Positions 261 through 3,858 of a stretch of 64,000 nt of DNA are shown piece by piece. Position 1 is the first letter of the stretch. Every line of letters begins with the position of its first letter. Under the pieces are notes generated by a model, which was not told where the DNA came from, did not search any database, and saw nothing but the letters and a program-made list of their open reading frames with translations. The position numbers and the translations under genes were made by a program. This DNA comes from a virus, in IMG/VR virus record IMGVR_UViG_3300032325_000466, positions 32,001 through 96,000 of that record; one strand, given 5' to 3'.

Positions 261-360
261 CTAGGATTTTTCTGTCTCACAAGAGAGACTCCATCCTCTA
301 GCCCGACCGTTCGTCCATGTTTTAAGTGCGGACTAGGACCTCGTTTCCTATGCACACTTA
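261..360 (-). ncRNA. Unassigned pseudoknotted RNA motif, copy A
   Basis: Shares TAAGTGT, AACG.GG, GCACT, AAACATG, GG.CGG, AGGAT.GAGTCTC and GTGAGA in the same order with 3761-3858. Stems show compensatory changes between the copies. Confidence 0.7.
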
Positions 361-384
361 CTGCTAATTTCACACTATACTGAC

Positions 385-413
385 ATTATATCACCTAGAT
401 GATTTATTGTCAA
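385..413 (-). promoter_or_regulatory. sigma70-type promoter
   Basis: TTGACA-17 bp-TATAAT, perfect consensus, about 25 nt upstream of RNA motif copy A. Confidence 0.9.
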
Positions 414-560
414 TCTCAGTTTTACGGTACTGAGAAACGTCATGCCTGTCAGCTATCAGGCTGCTTTGCTACTTACTATGAAAATAGAGTATCATTTTCC
501 ACCGTTTTTCGCTATTGCTACTCGGGCAGTTGATTTCTTCGTTTTTCACAGCATACAAGC

Positions 561-589
561 ATTATACATCAATAACCATTTATTGTCAA
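561..589 (-). promoter_or_regulatory. sigma70-type promoter
   Basis: TTGACA-17 bp-TATAAT, perfect consensus. Confidence 0.85.
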
Positions 590-591
590 AC

Positions 592-774
592 CTAGAAACT
601 TTTACCTCTCGTGAAGCTTTTAAGTTGCCAAAATCTTTGCCATTTAACCGCTTGCTTAGTTTTATGCGTATACCTATATAGCCTAATGCCATCAATCAGT
701 TTAAAGTAAGGCTTGGGTTTTGGCATACCTCTAAGTAATCTAGCAGCAGTTCTTTCGTATTCTTTTGTAATCAT
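592..774 (-). CDS. small basic hypothetical protein (60 aa)
   Basis: ORF track; fills the gap between tRNA-Arg and the next promoter, co-oriented with the cluster. Confidence 0.55.
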   Translation of the reverse strand: MITKEYERTAARLLRGMPKPKPYFKLIDGIRLYRYTHKTKQAVKWQRFWQLKSFTRGKSF

Positions 775-792
775 ACTAGACCTTTAGAAAAT

Positions 793-868
793 TGGCGCGA
801 CTGGAAGGATTCAAACCTCCGACCAATCGGGTAGAAGCCGATGGCTCTATTCACTGAGCTACAGTCGC
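793..868 (-). tRNA. tRNA-Arg (anticodon TCT)
   Basis: GCGACTG/CAGTCGC acceptor, anticodon arm ATCGG-CTTCTAC-CCGAT, T-arm GGAGG-TTTGAAT-CCTTC, encoded CCA. Confidence 0.95.
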
Positions 869-877
869 AATATAAAG

Positions 878-906
878 AGTATACTATGTGTTGGATTTAT
901 TGTCAA
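878..906 (-). promoter_or_regulatory. sigma70-type promoter for tRNA-Arg(TCT)
   Basis: TTGACA-17 bp-TATACT, 9 nt upstream of the tRNA 5' end. Confidence 0.85.
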
Positions 907-917
907 ACACTACTAAG

Positions 918-953
918 AAAAATGGATACGAAGAAAAATCTTTATATCCATTT
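918..953 (-). terminator. probable intrinsic terminator after the Thr-Asn tRNAs
   Basis: AAATGGATA...TATCCATTT inverted repeat followed by a T-run on the minus strand. Confidence 0.6.
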
Positions 954-960
954 GTAACTT

Positions 961-1041
961 TGGCTCCGCGATTAGGAATCGAACCTAACTTGCTTTCGCA
1001 CAGATTAACAGTCTGCTGCCACACCTTGCGGCTCTCACGGA
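961..1041 (-). tRNA. tRNA-Asn (anticodon GTT) with enlarged variable loop
   Basis: TCCGTGA/TCGCGGA acceptor, G discriminator plus CCA, anticodon arm GCAGA-CTGTTAA-TCTGT, variable region GCGAAAGCAAG. Confidence 0.9.
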
Positions 1042-1047
1042 ATATTT

Positions 1048-1122
1048 TGGTGCCCCCTGAGAGATTTGAACTCCCGACCTTCGGTTTACAAAACCGCTGC
1101 ACTACCACTGTGCTAAAGGGGC
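1048..1122 (-). tRNA. tRNA-Thr (anticodon TGT)
   Basis: GCCCCTT/AGGGGGC acceptor, anticodon arm GCGGT-TTTGTAA-ACCGA, CCA end. Confidence 0.95.
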
Positions 1123-1152
1123 TTAAAAACTTTTATAAAACTATTTATCGCT

Positions 1153-1366: not shown

Positions 1367-1402
1367 TTCACACTCCTTCTGTTTATCAGTTTCAATACAA
1401 GT

Positions 1403-1431
1403 ATTATACTACTATGCCCATTTATTGTCAA
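1403..1431 (-). promoter_or_regulatory. sigma70-type promoter
   Basis: TTGACA-17 bp-TATAAT, perfect consensus. Confidence 0.9.
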
Positions 1432-1509
1432 CCGAGCAATAATCTACTATGTTTTGGGATACTTTTTATGTTAAAAATTACATTCTCTACACGCTGCATA
1501 AATATTACA

Positions 1510-2289
1510 ATGAATACTAAAATTTACACTATATATCGGGCTACCAATATAATTAACGGTAAGGTATACATCGGATTCGACTCTAATTGGCCAAAAAGGA
1601 TGAGTGAGCATATTTGGGCTGCATTACGAGGTGATCAATTAGTATTTTATAATGCCATTCGCAAATACGGGACAAACAATTTTGTATGGGATATACTTTA
1701 TCAATCAACTGACGGTTCTCACACGAAAGATATTATGGAGGGGATTTTCATAAAAGAATATAACTCTCATATTCATTTTGAAAATAGTAACGGATACAAT
1801 ATGACCTTAGGCGGTGACGGTACTCTAGGTTATAATCACTTACAGATTACCAAGGATAAAATTAAGGAATTCAATATTGGCAAGAAGGCAAGCGAAGGAA
1901 CATGCGAAAAAATTTCAAATTCTAAAAAAGGAAAAACACTTAAACATTCTGGATCATTTCAACCGGGCCACACACCCTGGTGTAAGGGTAAAAAAATGTC
2001 TGTTGAATTTTCTAATAACTGTTCTGTAGGTCAACAAAAAAGATTTGAAAGTGCAGAAGAAAGAAATAAACTAAATCAGGCTAGAATTAAAGGTAGAGCC
2101 GCTCATAAAGAAAAGGCAAAAATTAAAATTGTATTCCCTGACGGAAAAATTGAGATCATGACTCCAGCAGACTTTTCCAAAAAATATAATTTTAATGAGC
2201 GAACAGTTTACTGGAACCTAAAAAAATACAAAGGTAATCTCATACCGTCTGGTAAATTAGCGGGATTCACTCTAGCCTCTAAGTCGTGA
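1510..2289 (+). mobile_element. GIY-YIG homing endonuclease with NUMOD3-like DNA-binding repeats
   Basis: IYTIYRATNIINGKVYIG...R...E...GYN motif and 'EKISNSKKGK' repeats. Start moved from 1414 to ATG 1510, which follows the late box CATAAATA. Antisense to the tRNA cluster. Confidence 0.9.
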
Positions 2290-2832
2290 ATACTTAGGAA
2301 TTCCGGACATTAAAAAATCCATTTGATCGGCTAATATATTTCTGTGCTGAAGAATCATATTTTCCCAATGATTGGGTACATATGGAATATACAACAATTC
2401 CATTTTTGCCTCCTTCAGAGTCTTGCTGCCCTTAGCAGAGTTACAGGTTTTACATGAAGTGATACAATTAAGCCAAGTATTTTGTCCACCGCGACTTTTA
2501 GGTACAATATGGTCACGGCTAAGAACATTGTGATTGGCAAAATGAGCACCACAGTAAGCACAGATATTTCTATCACGACCAAACAGTGTTCTATTGCTAA
2601 GAGCAACTTGAGCATGTTTTTGTGGATTGAATCCAGTACCTTTGATGGCGATAATGCTAGGAGTTTCAATGTAGCTTAGTGTTCCATCTTGCTGAACACC
2701 ACCACGATATTTAGCCACAACTGTGCCCATAGACCAAGCTACAGATTTGGTAGCCCAGTAAGCGATTGCATCGTCATAGCCGATCCATTGTCTTGGTGTG
2801 CCTGAAATATCTAGTGCTAACACTACTGCCAT
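2272..2832 (-). CDS. HNH endonuclease (McrA/HNH_5-like)
   Basis: RDRNICAYCG...SRDHIVPKSRGG..TWLNCITSCKTCNSAKG; SD AAGGAG. Confidence 0.9.
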   Translation of the reverse strand: MAVVLALDISGTPRQWIGYDDAIAYWATKSVAWSMGTVVAKYRGGVQQDGTLSYIETPSIIAIKGTGFNPQKHAQVALSNRTLFGRDRNICAYCGAHFANHNVLSRDHIVPKSRGGQNTWLNCITSCKTCNSAKGSKTLKEAKMELLYIPYVPNHWENMILQHRNILADQMDFLMSGIPKYSRLRG

Positions 2833-2879
2833 TTTCTTACTCCTTTGTCAAGTCTTGATACTACTATTTAGTTGCTTAC

Positions 2880-2954
2880 TGGCGGGTCCTGCAGGAATCG
2901 AACCCGCATCCTTTGGTTCGAAGCCAAAAATTCTATCCATTGAAATAAGGACCC
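2880..2954 (-). tRNA. tRNA-Arg (anticodon TCG)
   Basis: GGGTCCT/AGGACCC acceptor, anticodon arm TTTGG-CTTCGAA-CCAAA, T-arm GCGGG-TTCGATT-CCTGC, CCA. Confidence 0.92.
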
Positions 2955-2992
2955 TATGTAGCATCATACATTAAAGATCATTTAATGTAAAG

Positions 2993-3172
2993 CTATTTTT
3001 GAACTACTTCTTTTCTAAGCGCATCTTTCCTCATCAGCATACTACGCTGAGTTCCTTGACGATGCACTTTGATATATTCTATGCCCTCGATTAGCTGAGG
3101 TTGTTTGAGGTCTTCAACGAAGCATTCAAATTTTTCTTTATTGAAAACATTTTCGAATTTAACTACTTTCAT
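2993..3172 (-). CDS. hypothetical protein (59 aa, MKVVKFENVF...)
   Basis: Start moved to ATG 3172 (SD AAGGAG), because the ORF-track start at 3229 lies inside tRNA-Leu. Confidence 0.7.
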   Translation of the reverse strand: MKVVKFENVFNKEKFECFVEDLKQPQLIEGIEYIKVHRQGTQRSMLMRKDALRKEVVQK

Positions 3173-3199
3173 GTTTAATGCTCCTTGTTGTAAATAACG

Positions 3200-3277
3200 T
3201 GGTACCCTAGGAGAGATTCGAACTCTCAAAAAACCAGTACCTTAAACTGGCGCGTCTGCCAATTTCGCCACTAGGGT
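3200..3277 (-). tRNA. tRNA-Leu-like (anticodon AAG) with short variable loop
   Basis: ACCCTAG/CTAGGGT acceptor, A discriminator plus CCA, Leu-type D-arm GCG-AAATTGGCAGA-CGC, anticodon arm CCAGT-TTAAGGT-ACTGG. Confidence 0.85.
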
Positions 3278-3281
3278 AAAA

Positions 3282-3575
3282 TCAGATAACTAATCCAATT
3301 AAATGAACAATTATCATGCCTGCAATACCACCAACACATGTTGCTACAATGTCTGCAAATTCAACATGATGGGGAGGTGCTAGCCATTTCTTTTCAGCTA
3401 TTTTATTAGTGATGTAGTCATACATTTCTTTACCGATAGCCGCTATCAATACTGCGCTGGTTGCGGCTATGATTTCATATCCCATTCCAATAAGCGAACT
3501 TACTGCATAGGTGATTAAAAATATAACCGCGCCGGCTATGATATGCTTAATTTTATCTTGTGCTAAGTTTAACAT
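3282..3575 (-). CDS. small membrane protein (DKxxH...GKExxD type)
   Basis: Three hydrophobic segments; SD AAGGA and late box CATAAATA upstream. Confidence 0.75.
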   Translation of the reverse strand: MLNLAQDKIKHIIAGAVIFLITYAVSSLIGMGYEIIAATSAVLIAAIGKEMYDYITNKIAEKKWLAPPHHVEFADIVATCVGGIAGMIIVHLIGLVI

Positions 3576-3622
3576 ATTACATTCCTTTATAGTAGAATAT
3601 AATATTTATGCACATAAGAATT

Positions 3623-3697
3623 TGGCGGGGGTATCAGGATTTGAACCTGAACTGCTTCAGTCAAAGTGAAGTGTGCTGCCAGTTACACCATACCCCT
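3623..3697 (-). tRNA. tRNA-Gln (anticodon TTG)
   Basis: Anticodon arm CTTCA-CTTTGAC-TGAAG, T-arm TCAGG-TTCAAAT-CCTGA, unpaired 1:72 position, G discriminator plus CCA. Confidence 0.93.
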
Positions 3698-3760
3698 ATA
3701 AATAATACTGAAAAACACTGTGTACCAATGTTCTTTAGTATTGCTAGAGCCTTCCTCTAG

Positions 3761-3858
3761 CTGCCAATCTTTCATCTCACATAAGAGACTCTATCCTGGA
3801 CTCCGCCCTTTTTCAGCATGTTTATAGTGCGCTGTGAGCCCGCGTTGCTCAACACTTA
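3761..3858 (-). ncRNA. Unassigned pseudoknotted RNA motif, copy B
   Basis: Paralog of 261-360 with compensatory stem changes; begins immediately after the attenuator U-tract. Confidence 0.7.

Follow-up and report, generated by a model that had tools for sequence, protein, structure and literature searches.

The window analysed here is a stretch of 64,000 nucleotides (nt), positions 32,001 to 96,000 of the 191-kb IMG/VR virus record IMGVR_UViG_3300032325_000466, which is estimated to be ~54% complete. Near the start of the window, the minus strand carries two copies (A and B) of a structured RNA, here called the leader RNA or simply the motif. Comparison of sequences places both copies in a large family of knot-folded RNAs outside Rfam, which stand at the head of long tRNA arrays in freshwater phages not yet cultured. 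In large phages these arrays comprise 10-30 tRNA genes, and the passage of host RNA polymerase through kilobases of such untranslated, hairpin-dense sequence is not addressed in the literature we found.

Leader RNA copies in the window

An earlier note on this DNA had described two minus-strand copies sharing an ordered set of conserved blocks, and a block-by-block alignment agrees with that description. A 23-nt pattern taken from the 3' half of the motif, AGGATNGAGTCTCTNNTGTGAGA, occurs exactly twice in the window, against none expected from shuffles. The covariance model R1, which was built from 74 distinct trimmed instances of the family, matches nothing but copies A and B when run over the whole 191-kb record. 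The parts of each copy, comprising helices P1 to P4 and pseudoknots PK1 and PK2, are as follows.

261-358, minus strand: leader RNA copy A, the whole motif from the P1 5' strand to the P3 3' strand (R1 match of 94.8 bits at 258-359)
354-358, minus strand: copy A P1 5' strand AGUGU, with partner GCACU at 325-329 (minimum-free-energy fold and family covariation)
334-350, minus strand: copy A P2 hairpin, UAGGA 350-346, loop AACGAGG 345-339, UCCUA 338-334
330-333, minus strand: copy A PK1 5' strand GUCC, with partner GGAC at 313-316 across linker UAAAACAU (317-324)
303-312, minus strand: copy A linker GAACGGUCGG; predicted PK2 contacts are C309 with loop G339, and U306-C305-G304 with loop C343-G342-A341
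261-301, minus strand: copy A 3' domain, P3 formed by 301-296 with 266-261, internal loop GGAUGGA / AGAAAAAU
Within this 3' domain, minus strand: copy A P4, GUCUC 289-285 with GAGAC 278-274, loop UCUUGU
3763-3856, minus strand: leader RNA copy B (R1 match of 83.1 bits)
Copy B P1 and P2, minus strand: P1 3856-3852 with 3830-3826; P2 3851-3847 with 3839-3835, loop AACGCGG
Copy B PK1 and linker, minus strand: PK1 3834-3831 with 3817-3814; linker AAAAAGGGCGG 3813-3803
Copy B P3 and P4, minus strand: P3 3801-3797 with 3766-3763; P4 3789-3785 with 3778-3774

Both copies have the traits of the family, that is, P1-P4, the loop AACGNGR, the linker AAYGGKCGG and the internal loop GGAURGA/RAAARAU; copy B departs from it at the tertiary pair (G.A) and in P3.

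A family at the head of tRNA arrays

IMG/VR was scanned twice by pattern, which gave 23 contigs the first time and at least 119 the second. R1 retrieved 98 + 19 matches at 42-111 bits and rejected chance pattern matches, giving a family of at least 117 instances and 94 distinct sequences. The contigs range from a few kb to ~350 kb, and those with a named source come mostly from freshwater or lake samples. A homologue search with a covariance model had been proposed in the earlier note; carried out here, it yielded about 100 homologues with strong covariation.

A same-strand tRNA lies downstream of the motif in 87 of 96 distinct loci, with a median gap of 119 nt and up to 26 tRNAs, and the loci without one are mostly contig ends. 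Most loci have no tRNA upstream, and each array has a single copy of the motif. This position agrees with the suggestion that copies A and B each head a tRNA-containing transcript. In metagenomes the motif shows where phage tRNA operons begin. Whatever its function, a structure model resting on ~94 distinct sequences is a well-supported addition to the known structured RNAs.

The motif had not been recognised as a known riboswitch or ribozyme, and database searches upheld this. Searching window positions 1-4500 against Rfam 15, at gathering thresholds and at E up to 10, gave tRNAs and chance matches, with none over 261-358 or 3763-3856; Rfam 15 likewise gave no motif match over the phages Ebrios and Rambo (see below) or over family locus L011. 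In blastn searches of 50,697 phage records, copies A and B and locus L041 as queries matched nothing or matched by chance; the consensus-like sequence of locus L032 was the only query to reach a group of T7-like phages. We found no paper on the motif in the literature, and a 2023 catalogue of 8,495 candidate RNAs from IMG/VR (PMC10690425) may include it.

A pattern scan of bacterial genomes gave mostly chance matches (~500 expected). Two of the 80 loci kept pass R1, one on a 2-kb contig of a Bacteroidota metagenome-assembled genome (MAG) and one on a 183-kb contig of a Haliscomenobacter MAG. The latter MAG holds two leader copies, L135/L372 (G002:C1:141562-141662, on the 183-kb contig) and the weaker L373 (G002:C90:7715-7809); the 183-kb contig may be a binned giant phage or prophage. 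Its occurrence there and the proteobacterial-type promoters of the window phage are conflicting host clues, and because the MAG binning may be wrong we infer no host.

Structure and covariation

Pairing was scored over 81 distinct sequences, in which 90.4% of cells pair and both sides change at 19 of 23 pairs. When the 3' partner was slid by 1-3 columns as a control, 25-40% were paired. Covariation of this kind supports the four predicted helices and both pseudoknots, most of which the earlier note had already proposed from the two copies. P1 is 95% paired, with changes on both sides at all five pairs, and the AGUGU/GCACU of the window is replaced elsewhere in the family by CGUG/CACG, ACUG/CAGU, AGCG/CGCU and AGUAU/AUACU. 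P2 (96.9% paired) has 5 bp around a loop whose family form, AACGNGR, contains the 7-nt loop common to A and B. The 3' hairpin GUCUC/GAGAY corresponds to P4, where double changes occur at 5/5 pairs. PK1, first noticed as GUCC/GGAC in copy A and CAGC/GCUG in copy B, joins the segment after P2 to the segment before AAYGG; the family has 69 distinct strand pairs here, and a sequence pairs with its own partner over an uninterrupted run of 5.07 bp on average, vs. 3.22 bp with the partners of other sequences.

A second tertiary pairing, CGN of the P2 loop with KCG of the linker, stood only in part. Its C-G and G-C pairs are invariant, but the third position is A.G in 69 of the 81 sequences and thus in most members is not a covarying Watson-Crick pair. 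It is loop nucleotide 7 that covaries, with the Y of AAYGGKCGG: among the 94 distinct sequences this pair is G-C in 64, A-U in 29 and G.A in one (copy B), and its state changes ~16 times on a tree made from the remaining positions of the motif. As corrected here, PK2 is made up of the loop nucleotide 7/Y pair and of the two invariant pairs between C-G of the loop and C-G of the linker.

The earlier description also lacked helix P3, which surrounds the 3' hairpin and a conserved internal loop (GGAURGA / RAAARAU; the P4 loop is UYUUGU). The predicted fold is an H-type pseudoknot (P2 + PK2) followed by a hairpin with this internal loop, and in the version at tRNA arrays P1 and PK1 would clamp the long connecting loop of the P2/PK2 pseudoknot. 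About 35 nucleotides of the motif are invariant. Folding energy alone is non-significant for the two window copies (z -1.76 and -0.05); because it is unremarkable, the structural evidence is comparative.

Genomic context of the leader RNA

Three kinds of sequence lie upstream of the motif: a sigma70 promoter, a small open reading frame (ORF), or a leader ORF with a terminator. The features around the window copies, given below, include the perfect promoter ahead of copy A and the attenuator directly ahead of copy B that had been claimed for them, and on the downstream side both layouts are also as claimed, with two hairpins and then a tRNA or tRNA-like RNA.

385-413, minus strand: perfect sigma70-type promoter, TTGACA-17-TATAAT with TG, 26 nt 5' of copy A P1
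237-255, minus strand: 7-bp hairpin after copy A (255-237), read from the sequence
164-179 and 221-236, minus strand: 16-bp perfect stem after copy A (236-221 with 179-164), enclosing 41 nt
14-166, minus strand: tRNA-like RNA after copy A, with acceptor UAUGGUA/UACCAUA, D arm and T arm, read by eye
4091-4119, minus strand: promoter-like site 5' of the 45-codon ORF ahead of copy B
3920-4057, minus strand: 45-codon ORF 5' of the U-tract hairpin of copy B
3858-3899, minus strand: imperfect hairpin and U-tract (terminator- or attenuator-like), ending 2 nt 5' of copy B
3623-3761, minus strand: elements after copy B, namely hairpin 3761-3743, hairpin 3742-3704 and tRNA-Gln 3697-3623

Copy A begins 26 nt past the -10 hexamer, ~20 nt past the start site, and three other loci share with it a consensus sigma70 promoter directly upstream. 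The arrangement at copy B, an ORF of 37-58 codons followed by a U-tract hairpin abutting P1, occurs in 21 of the 96 loci (copy B and 20 others). These ORFs have a mixed amino-acid content and, together with the hairpin, resemble a translation-coupled attenuator ahead of a tRNA operon. About half of the family has a different, conserved small ORF of 50-58 amino acids (aa) containing the motif ..LTxEQxxKLIxxKxERA.., with its stop codon 3-13 nt 5' of P1 (for example L034:6873-7046, minus strand, and L032:11571-11732, plus strand, with ~50 other loci). No Pfam or PHROG function was found for it. It was not found in the 191-kb record of the window, and for that reason we rejected it as an obligatory partner of the motif.

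An attenuator-like leader adjoining the motif in 21 loci, together with aptamer-like conservation and an ACG-containing loop and GGKCGG linker that recall small pseudoknot aptamers, might point to a sensor akin to a riboswitch, which would respond to a ligand or to tRNA status and control whether the array is transcribed. We give this very little credence: there is no expression platform, the hairpins that follow being variable and without U-tracts; no ORF or ribosome-binding site stands under its control; and the terminator lies upstream of the motif, beyond its control.

In homologues, one or two variable hairpins without U-tracts lie between the motif and the first tRNA, and the downstream RNA as a whole is long, untranslated and hairpin-rich. 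The 3' arm of the 16-bp stem at 164-236 (minus strand) overlaps the start of the tRNA-like RNA and may be an RNase III-type processing stem. That tRNA-like RNA (14-166) has a ~80-nt insert in its anticodon/variable region and was called by neither ARAGORN nor the Rfam tRNA model. A long post-leader hairpin at L014:2335-2440 (plus strand) and L013:7584-7690 (plus strand) bears a tRNA-shaped insert, also not called by ARAGORN, with a D-loop-like GGUCUAAUGG and a T-loop-like GGGGUCGACUCCC. A likeness to boxA in the first downstream hairpin, UGCUUUAAUACA, was rejected, as this stretch is base-paired and the window copies lack it.

Between the two window copies, the tRNA region is broken by an HNH endonuclease gene (1414-2289, plus strand) and a 291-aa ORF on the opposite strand with no Pfam match (2272-2832, minus strand). 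A ~1-kb stretch of the tRNA region (385-1431, minus strand) holds five perfect or near-perfect TTGACA-17-TATAAT promoters, an unusually high density, and the tRNAs or small ORFs driven by each number one to three. The perfect sigma70 promoters at 589-561 and 413-385 are separated by a non-coding stretch of ~150 nt (414-560, minus strand) with a hairpin at its end; it is overlapped by an RNA-library contig (369-539) and may be another small RNA.

T7-like phages and the boxA slot

A few cultured T7-like phages (8 records) also have the motif core (P2, PK2, P3 and P4), a single time in each genome; among them are Escherichia phage Ebrios, Stenotrophomonas phage IME15, three Aeromonas phages and Yersinia phage Rambo. 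In Ebrios, R1 positions 58-99 match 796-837 at 31.7 bits, the sole match in the genome. Just upstream is a 4-bp hairpin with the loop AACGGCA, five nucleotides of which pair with the linker UGUCG. The T7-like core has a P2 loop AACGGCR, a 5-bp PK2 and P3, and its internal loop and P4 loop UCUUGU are identical to those of the array version; P1 and PK1 are absent. Between Rambo and Ebrios, compensatory changes occur in P2, in P3 and in the loop-linker helix, where the covarying pair is A-U in Ebrios and G-C in Rambo. Applied to IMG/VR, a stricter minimal-core pattern found only the IME15-type genome beyond known members.

In these phages the core lies between the last host-polymerase promoter and the RNase III site R0.3 with gene 0.3. 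The Ebrios element occupies ~20-85 nt past the last early promoter, and the RNase III site is ~100 nt downstream of the T7-like core. T7 itself has no motif match (R1), and in the same slot it has a hairpin and a perfect boxA, GCTCTTTAACAA, a leader common to 283 T7-like records. A passage of PMC3709561, citing Savalia et al. (2010), treats the T7 boxA as an antitermination element for early transcription by host polymerase. No boxA within 2 mismatches was found in the Ebrios or IME15-type leaders, and all three motif-bearing leaders checked are without one; nor does the boxA consensus GCUCUUUAACAA occur near the window copies. A scan of IMG/VR with a boxA 14-mer gave 119 matches. At L255:1000-1360 (minus strand), in a 76.7-kb record without the leader motif (R1), a sigma70 promoter is followed by a ~180-nt leader, a perfect rrn-type boxA and, 9 nt later, at least six tRNAs. 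Either boxA or the leader RNA is found in two independent slots, one in the early leader of T7-like phages and one where a phage tRNA array begins. As far as can be told, the T7-like homologues, this slot exchange and the covarying tertiary pair are new.

The position of the core in the T7 boxA slot, 5' of a separate RNase III site, argues for a role in transcription elongation and against a ribozyme specific to tRNA processing. A new class of self-cleaving ribozyme, cutting at or near the 5' edge of the motif to part upstream mRNA or attenuator from the tRNA precursor, would accord with the double-pseudoknot fold and its many invariant unpaired nucleotides, with the sharp 5' border below variable upstream sequence, and with the theta/HDV-like (hepatitis delta virus-like) ribozymes linked to phage tRNAs (PMC10879173). 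We nevertheless regard it as highly improbable. No Rfam ribozyme model matched at E up to 10, and the strand order is unlike that of HDV-like and pistol ribozymes. Copy A begins so soon after its promoter (~20 nt) that almost nothing would be removed. Ideas of self-cleavage and of tRNA processing are further weakened because P1 and PK1 are dispensable in the T7-like phages, where the dedicated RNase III site 100 nt further on would make self-cleavage redundant.

The same processing sites bear on whether the leader acts in trans. Released by RNase P at the first tRNA, or by RNase III at R0.3, it could accumulate and then sequester a host protein; suggested targets of such a decoy may be a tRNA-targeting defence nuclease, Rho, RNase E or Hfq. 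A known processing site does lie downstream of the motif at tRNA arrays and in T7-like leaders alike, and cleavage there would release a small, stable and highly structured RNA; its strongly conserved unpaired nucleotides would suit recognition by a protein, and tRNA arrays are discussed as anti-defence devices in PMC12803027. Yet a trans-acting RNA would not need to occur strictly once, at the 5' end of the array, and no partner protein is found with it throughout, since the record of the window lacks the small upstream ORF. We consider such action in trans unlikely.

Also unlikely, in our judgement, is a role in stability or processing, in which the motif would be a nuclease-resistant 5' structure shielding the tRNA precursor, or a recognition site by which a host RNase sets the order of processing. 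Its 5'-terminal position in copy A and Ebrios (~20 nt past the start site), a compact pseudoknotted fold like that of exonuclease-resistant RNAs, and long downstream stems resembling RNase III substrates would all be expected of such an element. Against this, a simple 5' hairpin gives enough protection in Proteobacteria, so that a 100-nt fold with ~35 invariant positions exceeds the need; in about a quarter of the loci the motif is internal to a longer transcript, behind an ORF or terminator; and the T7-like phages already have R0.3 just downstream.

A proposed cis-acting antitermination leader

With its core where T7 has boxA, the motif probably makes RNA polymerase resistant to termination. 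We therefore propose, tentatively and with confidence that falls a little short of even, that it is a cis-acting leader which would render the elongation complex termination-resistant in the manner of put or boxA/nut leaders. The fold, the family, the position at array heads and the occurrence in the T7-like boxA slot are observed, and binding to the elongation complex and antitermination itself are inferred.

Under this proposal the motif would be transcribed first, at the very start of a multi-kilobase, untranslated and hairpin-rich tRNA array. It would fold co-transcriptionally into the compact H-type pseudoknot (P2 + PK2) and then the hairpin with its purine-rich internal loop (P3, GGAUGGA/RAAAAAU, P4), and at tRNA arrays the second pseudoknot (P1 + PK1) would clamp the long connecting loop. 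The folded RNA would remain with the elongation complex, directly or via Nus-type factors, and the complex would read through Rho-dependent and intrinsic termination signals and pauses within the array. A narrower form of the proposal, which we hold to be doubtful, is that the motif represents a new class of nascent-RNA antiterminator that binds elongating RNA polymerase directly, without a phage protein, shields multi-kb untranslated tRNA arrays from Rho and intrinsic terminators, and has been exchanged with boxA in both slots.

The interchangeable upstream contexts fit an antiterminator, which would be expected after a regulatory terminator and where translation stops, and the comparative data favour none of the ribozyme, cap, sensor and decoy functions. 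Several observations weigh against antitermination. The equivalence of the slots is circumstantial, its basis being 8 T7-like records (3 of them checked for boxA) and a single tRNA array headed by boxA. In the tRNA region of the window, several strong promoters drive tRNAs without the motif, so it is not required for tRNA expression. A ribozyme or an aptamer would account for the ~35 invariant nucleotides just as well. Run over the whole HK022 genome with filters off, R1 gave a best match of 9.7 bits (E 0.87), inside a coding gene. Two lake metatranscriptome runs contain a few low-depth contig pieces, one over 307-358 and one over 369-539, too sparse to reveal a transcript or its ends; since these are assembled contigs to which relatives or carried-over DNA may have contributed, neither transcription nor transcript ends can be read from them.

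If the proposal is true, it extends the known means by which phages control transcription and adds an RNA fold, itself new, that acts on RNA polymerase, and a class binding the polymerase directly would be only the second natural one after HK022 put. Because the core is present in cultured T7-like phages of E. coli and Yersinia (Ebrios and Rambo), the idea is open to direct testing.

Comparison with known systems

The tRNA cluster of phage T4 includes stable RNAs (species 1 and 2; rnaC and rnaD), structured non-tRNA RNAs that are co-transcribed with the cluster. By description they are comparable to the motif as structured non-tRNA RNAs accompanying a phage tRNA cluster. The T4 RNAs, however, are found within their cluster or at its end, and their termini are tRNA-like, whereas the motif is a pseudoknotted leader.

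Theta/HDV-like ribozymes linked to tRNA genes of uncultured phages (PMC10879173) are likewise double-pseudoknot RNAs of similar size. The topology of the motif had been judged unlike that of HDV-like/theta and pistol ribozymes, and both strand order and loop partner do differ. Its strands run P1-P2-PK2(loop)-P2'-PK1-P1'-PK1'-PK2', in contrast to P1-P2-P3-P3'-P1'-P1.1'-P4-P2' in HDV-like ribozymes, which have a catalytic C in J4/2. Theta ribozymes reportedly lie directly 3' of single tRNAs, whereas the motif is upstream of whole arrays. In pistol, the partner of the hairpin loop is the 5' side of the P2-P3 internal loop, opposite the G-U cleavage site, whereas the loop of the motif pairs with the linker 5' of P3. 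The window copies had no Rfam match to the HDV family or to pistol at E up to 10.

The put RNAs of phage HK022, processive antiterminators that need no protein factor, bind the zinc-binding domain of the RNA polymerase beta' subunit and suppress terminators in cis. Like putL and putR, the motif is a phage-borne nascent RNA of ~70-100 nt with two folded modules, one of which has base triples or a pseudoknot, and it is promoter-proximal or heads a long unit (copy A, Ebrios and 87 of 96 loci), and action in cis is proposed for it. The R1 comparison indicates that it is not a put homologue. HK022 put is ~70 nt, with two stem-loops and a triplex just downstream of the early promoters (PMC9378689); it has no pseudoknot, whereas the motif is predicted to form an H-type pseudoknot and an internal-loop hairpin. 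Polymerase binding has been shown for put and is suggested for the motif, and put has no link to tRNA arrays.

The boxA elements of rrn operons, lambda nut sites and the T7 early leader are similar in position: the motif lies between a promoter and an untranslated or early operon, and the two occupy the same slot in T7-like phages and, as seen at L255, at the head of a tRNA array. In form they differ, boxA being a 12-nt single-stranded site read by NusB/S10 and the motif a folded RNA of 70-100 nt without boxA-like sequence. In T7, mutations in boxA render gp2 dispensable. boxA shields untranslated RNA operons from Rho, and a tRNA array would have the same need.

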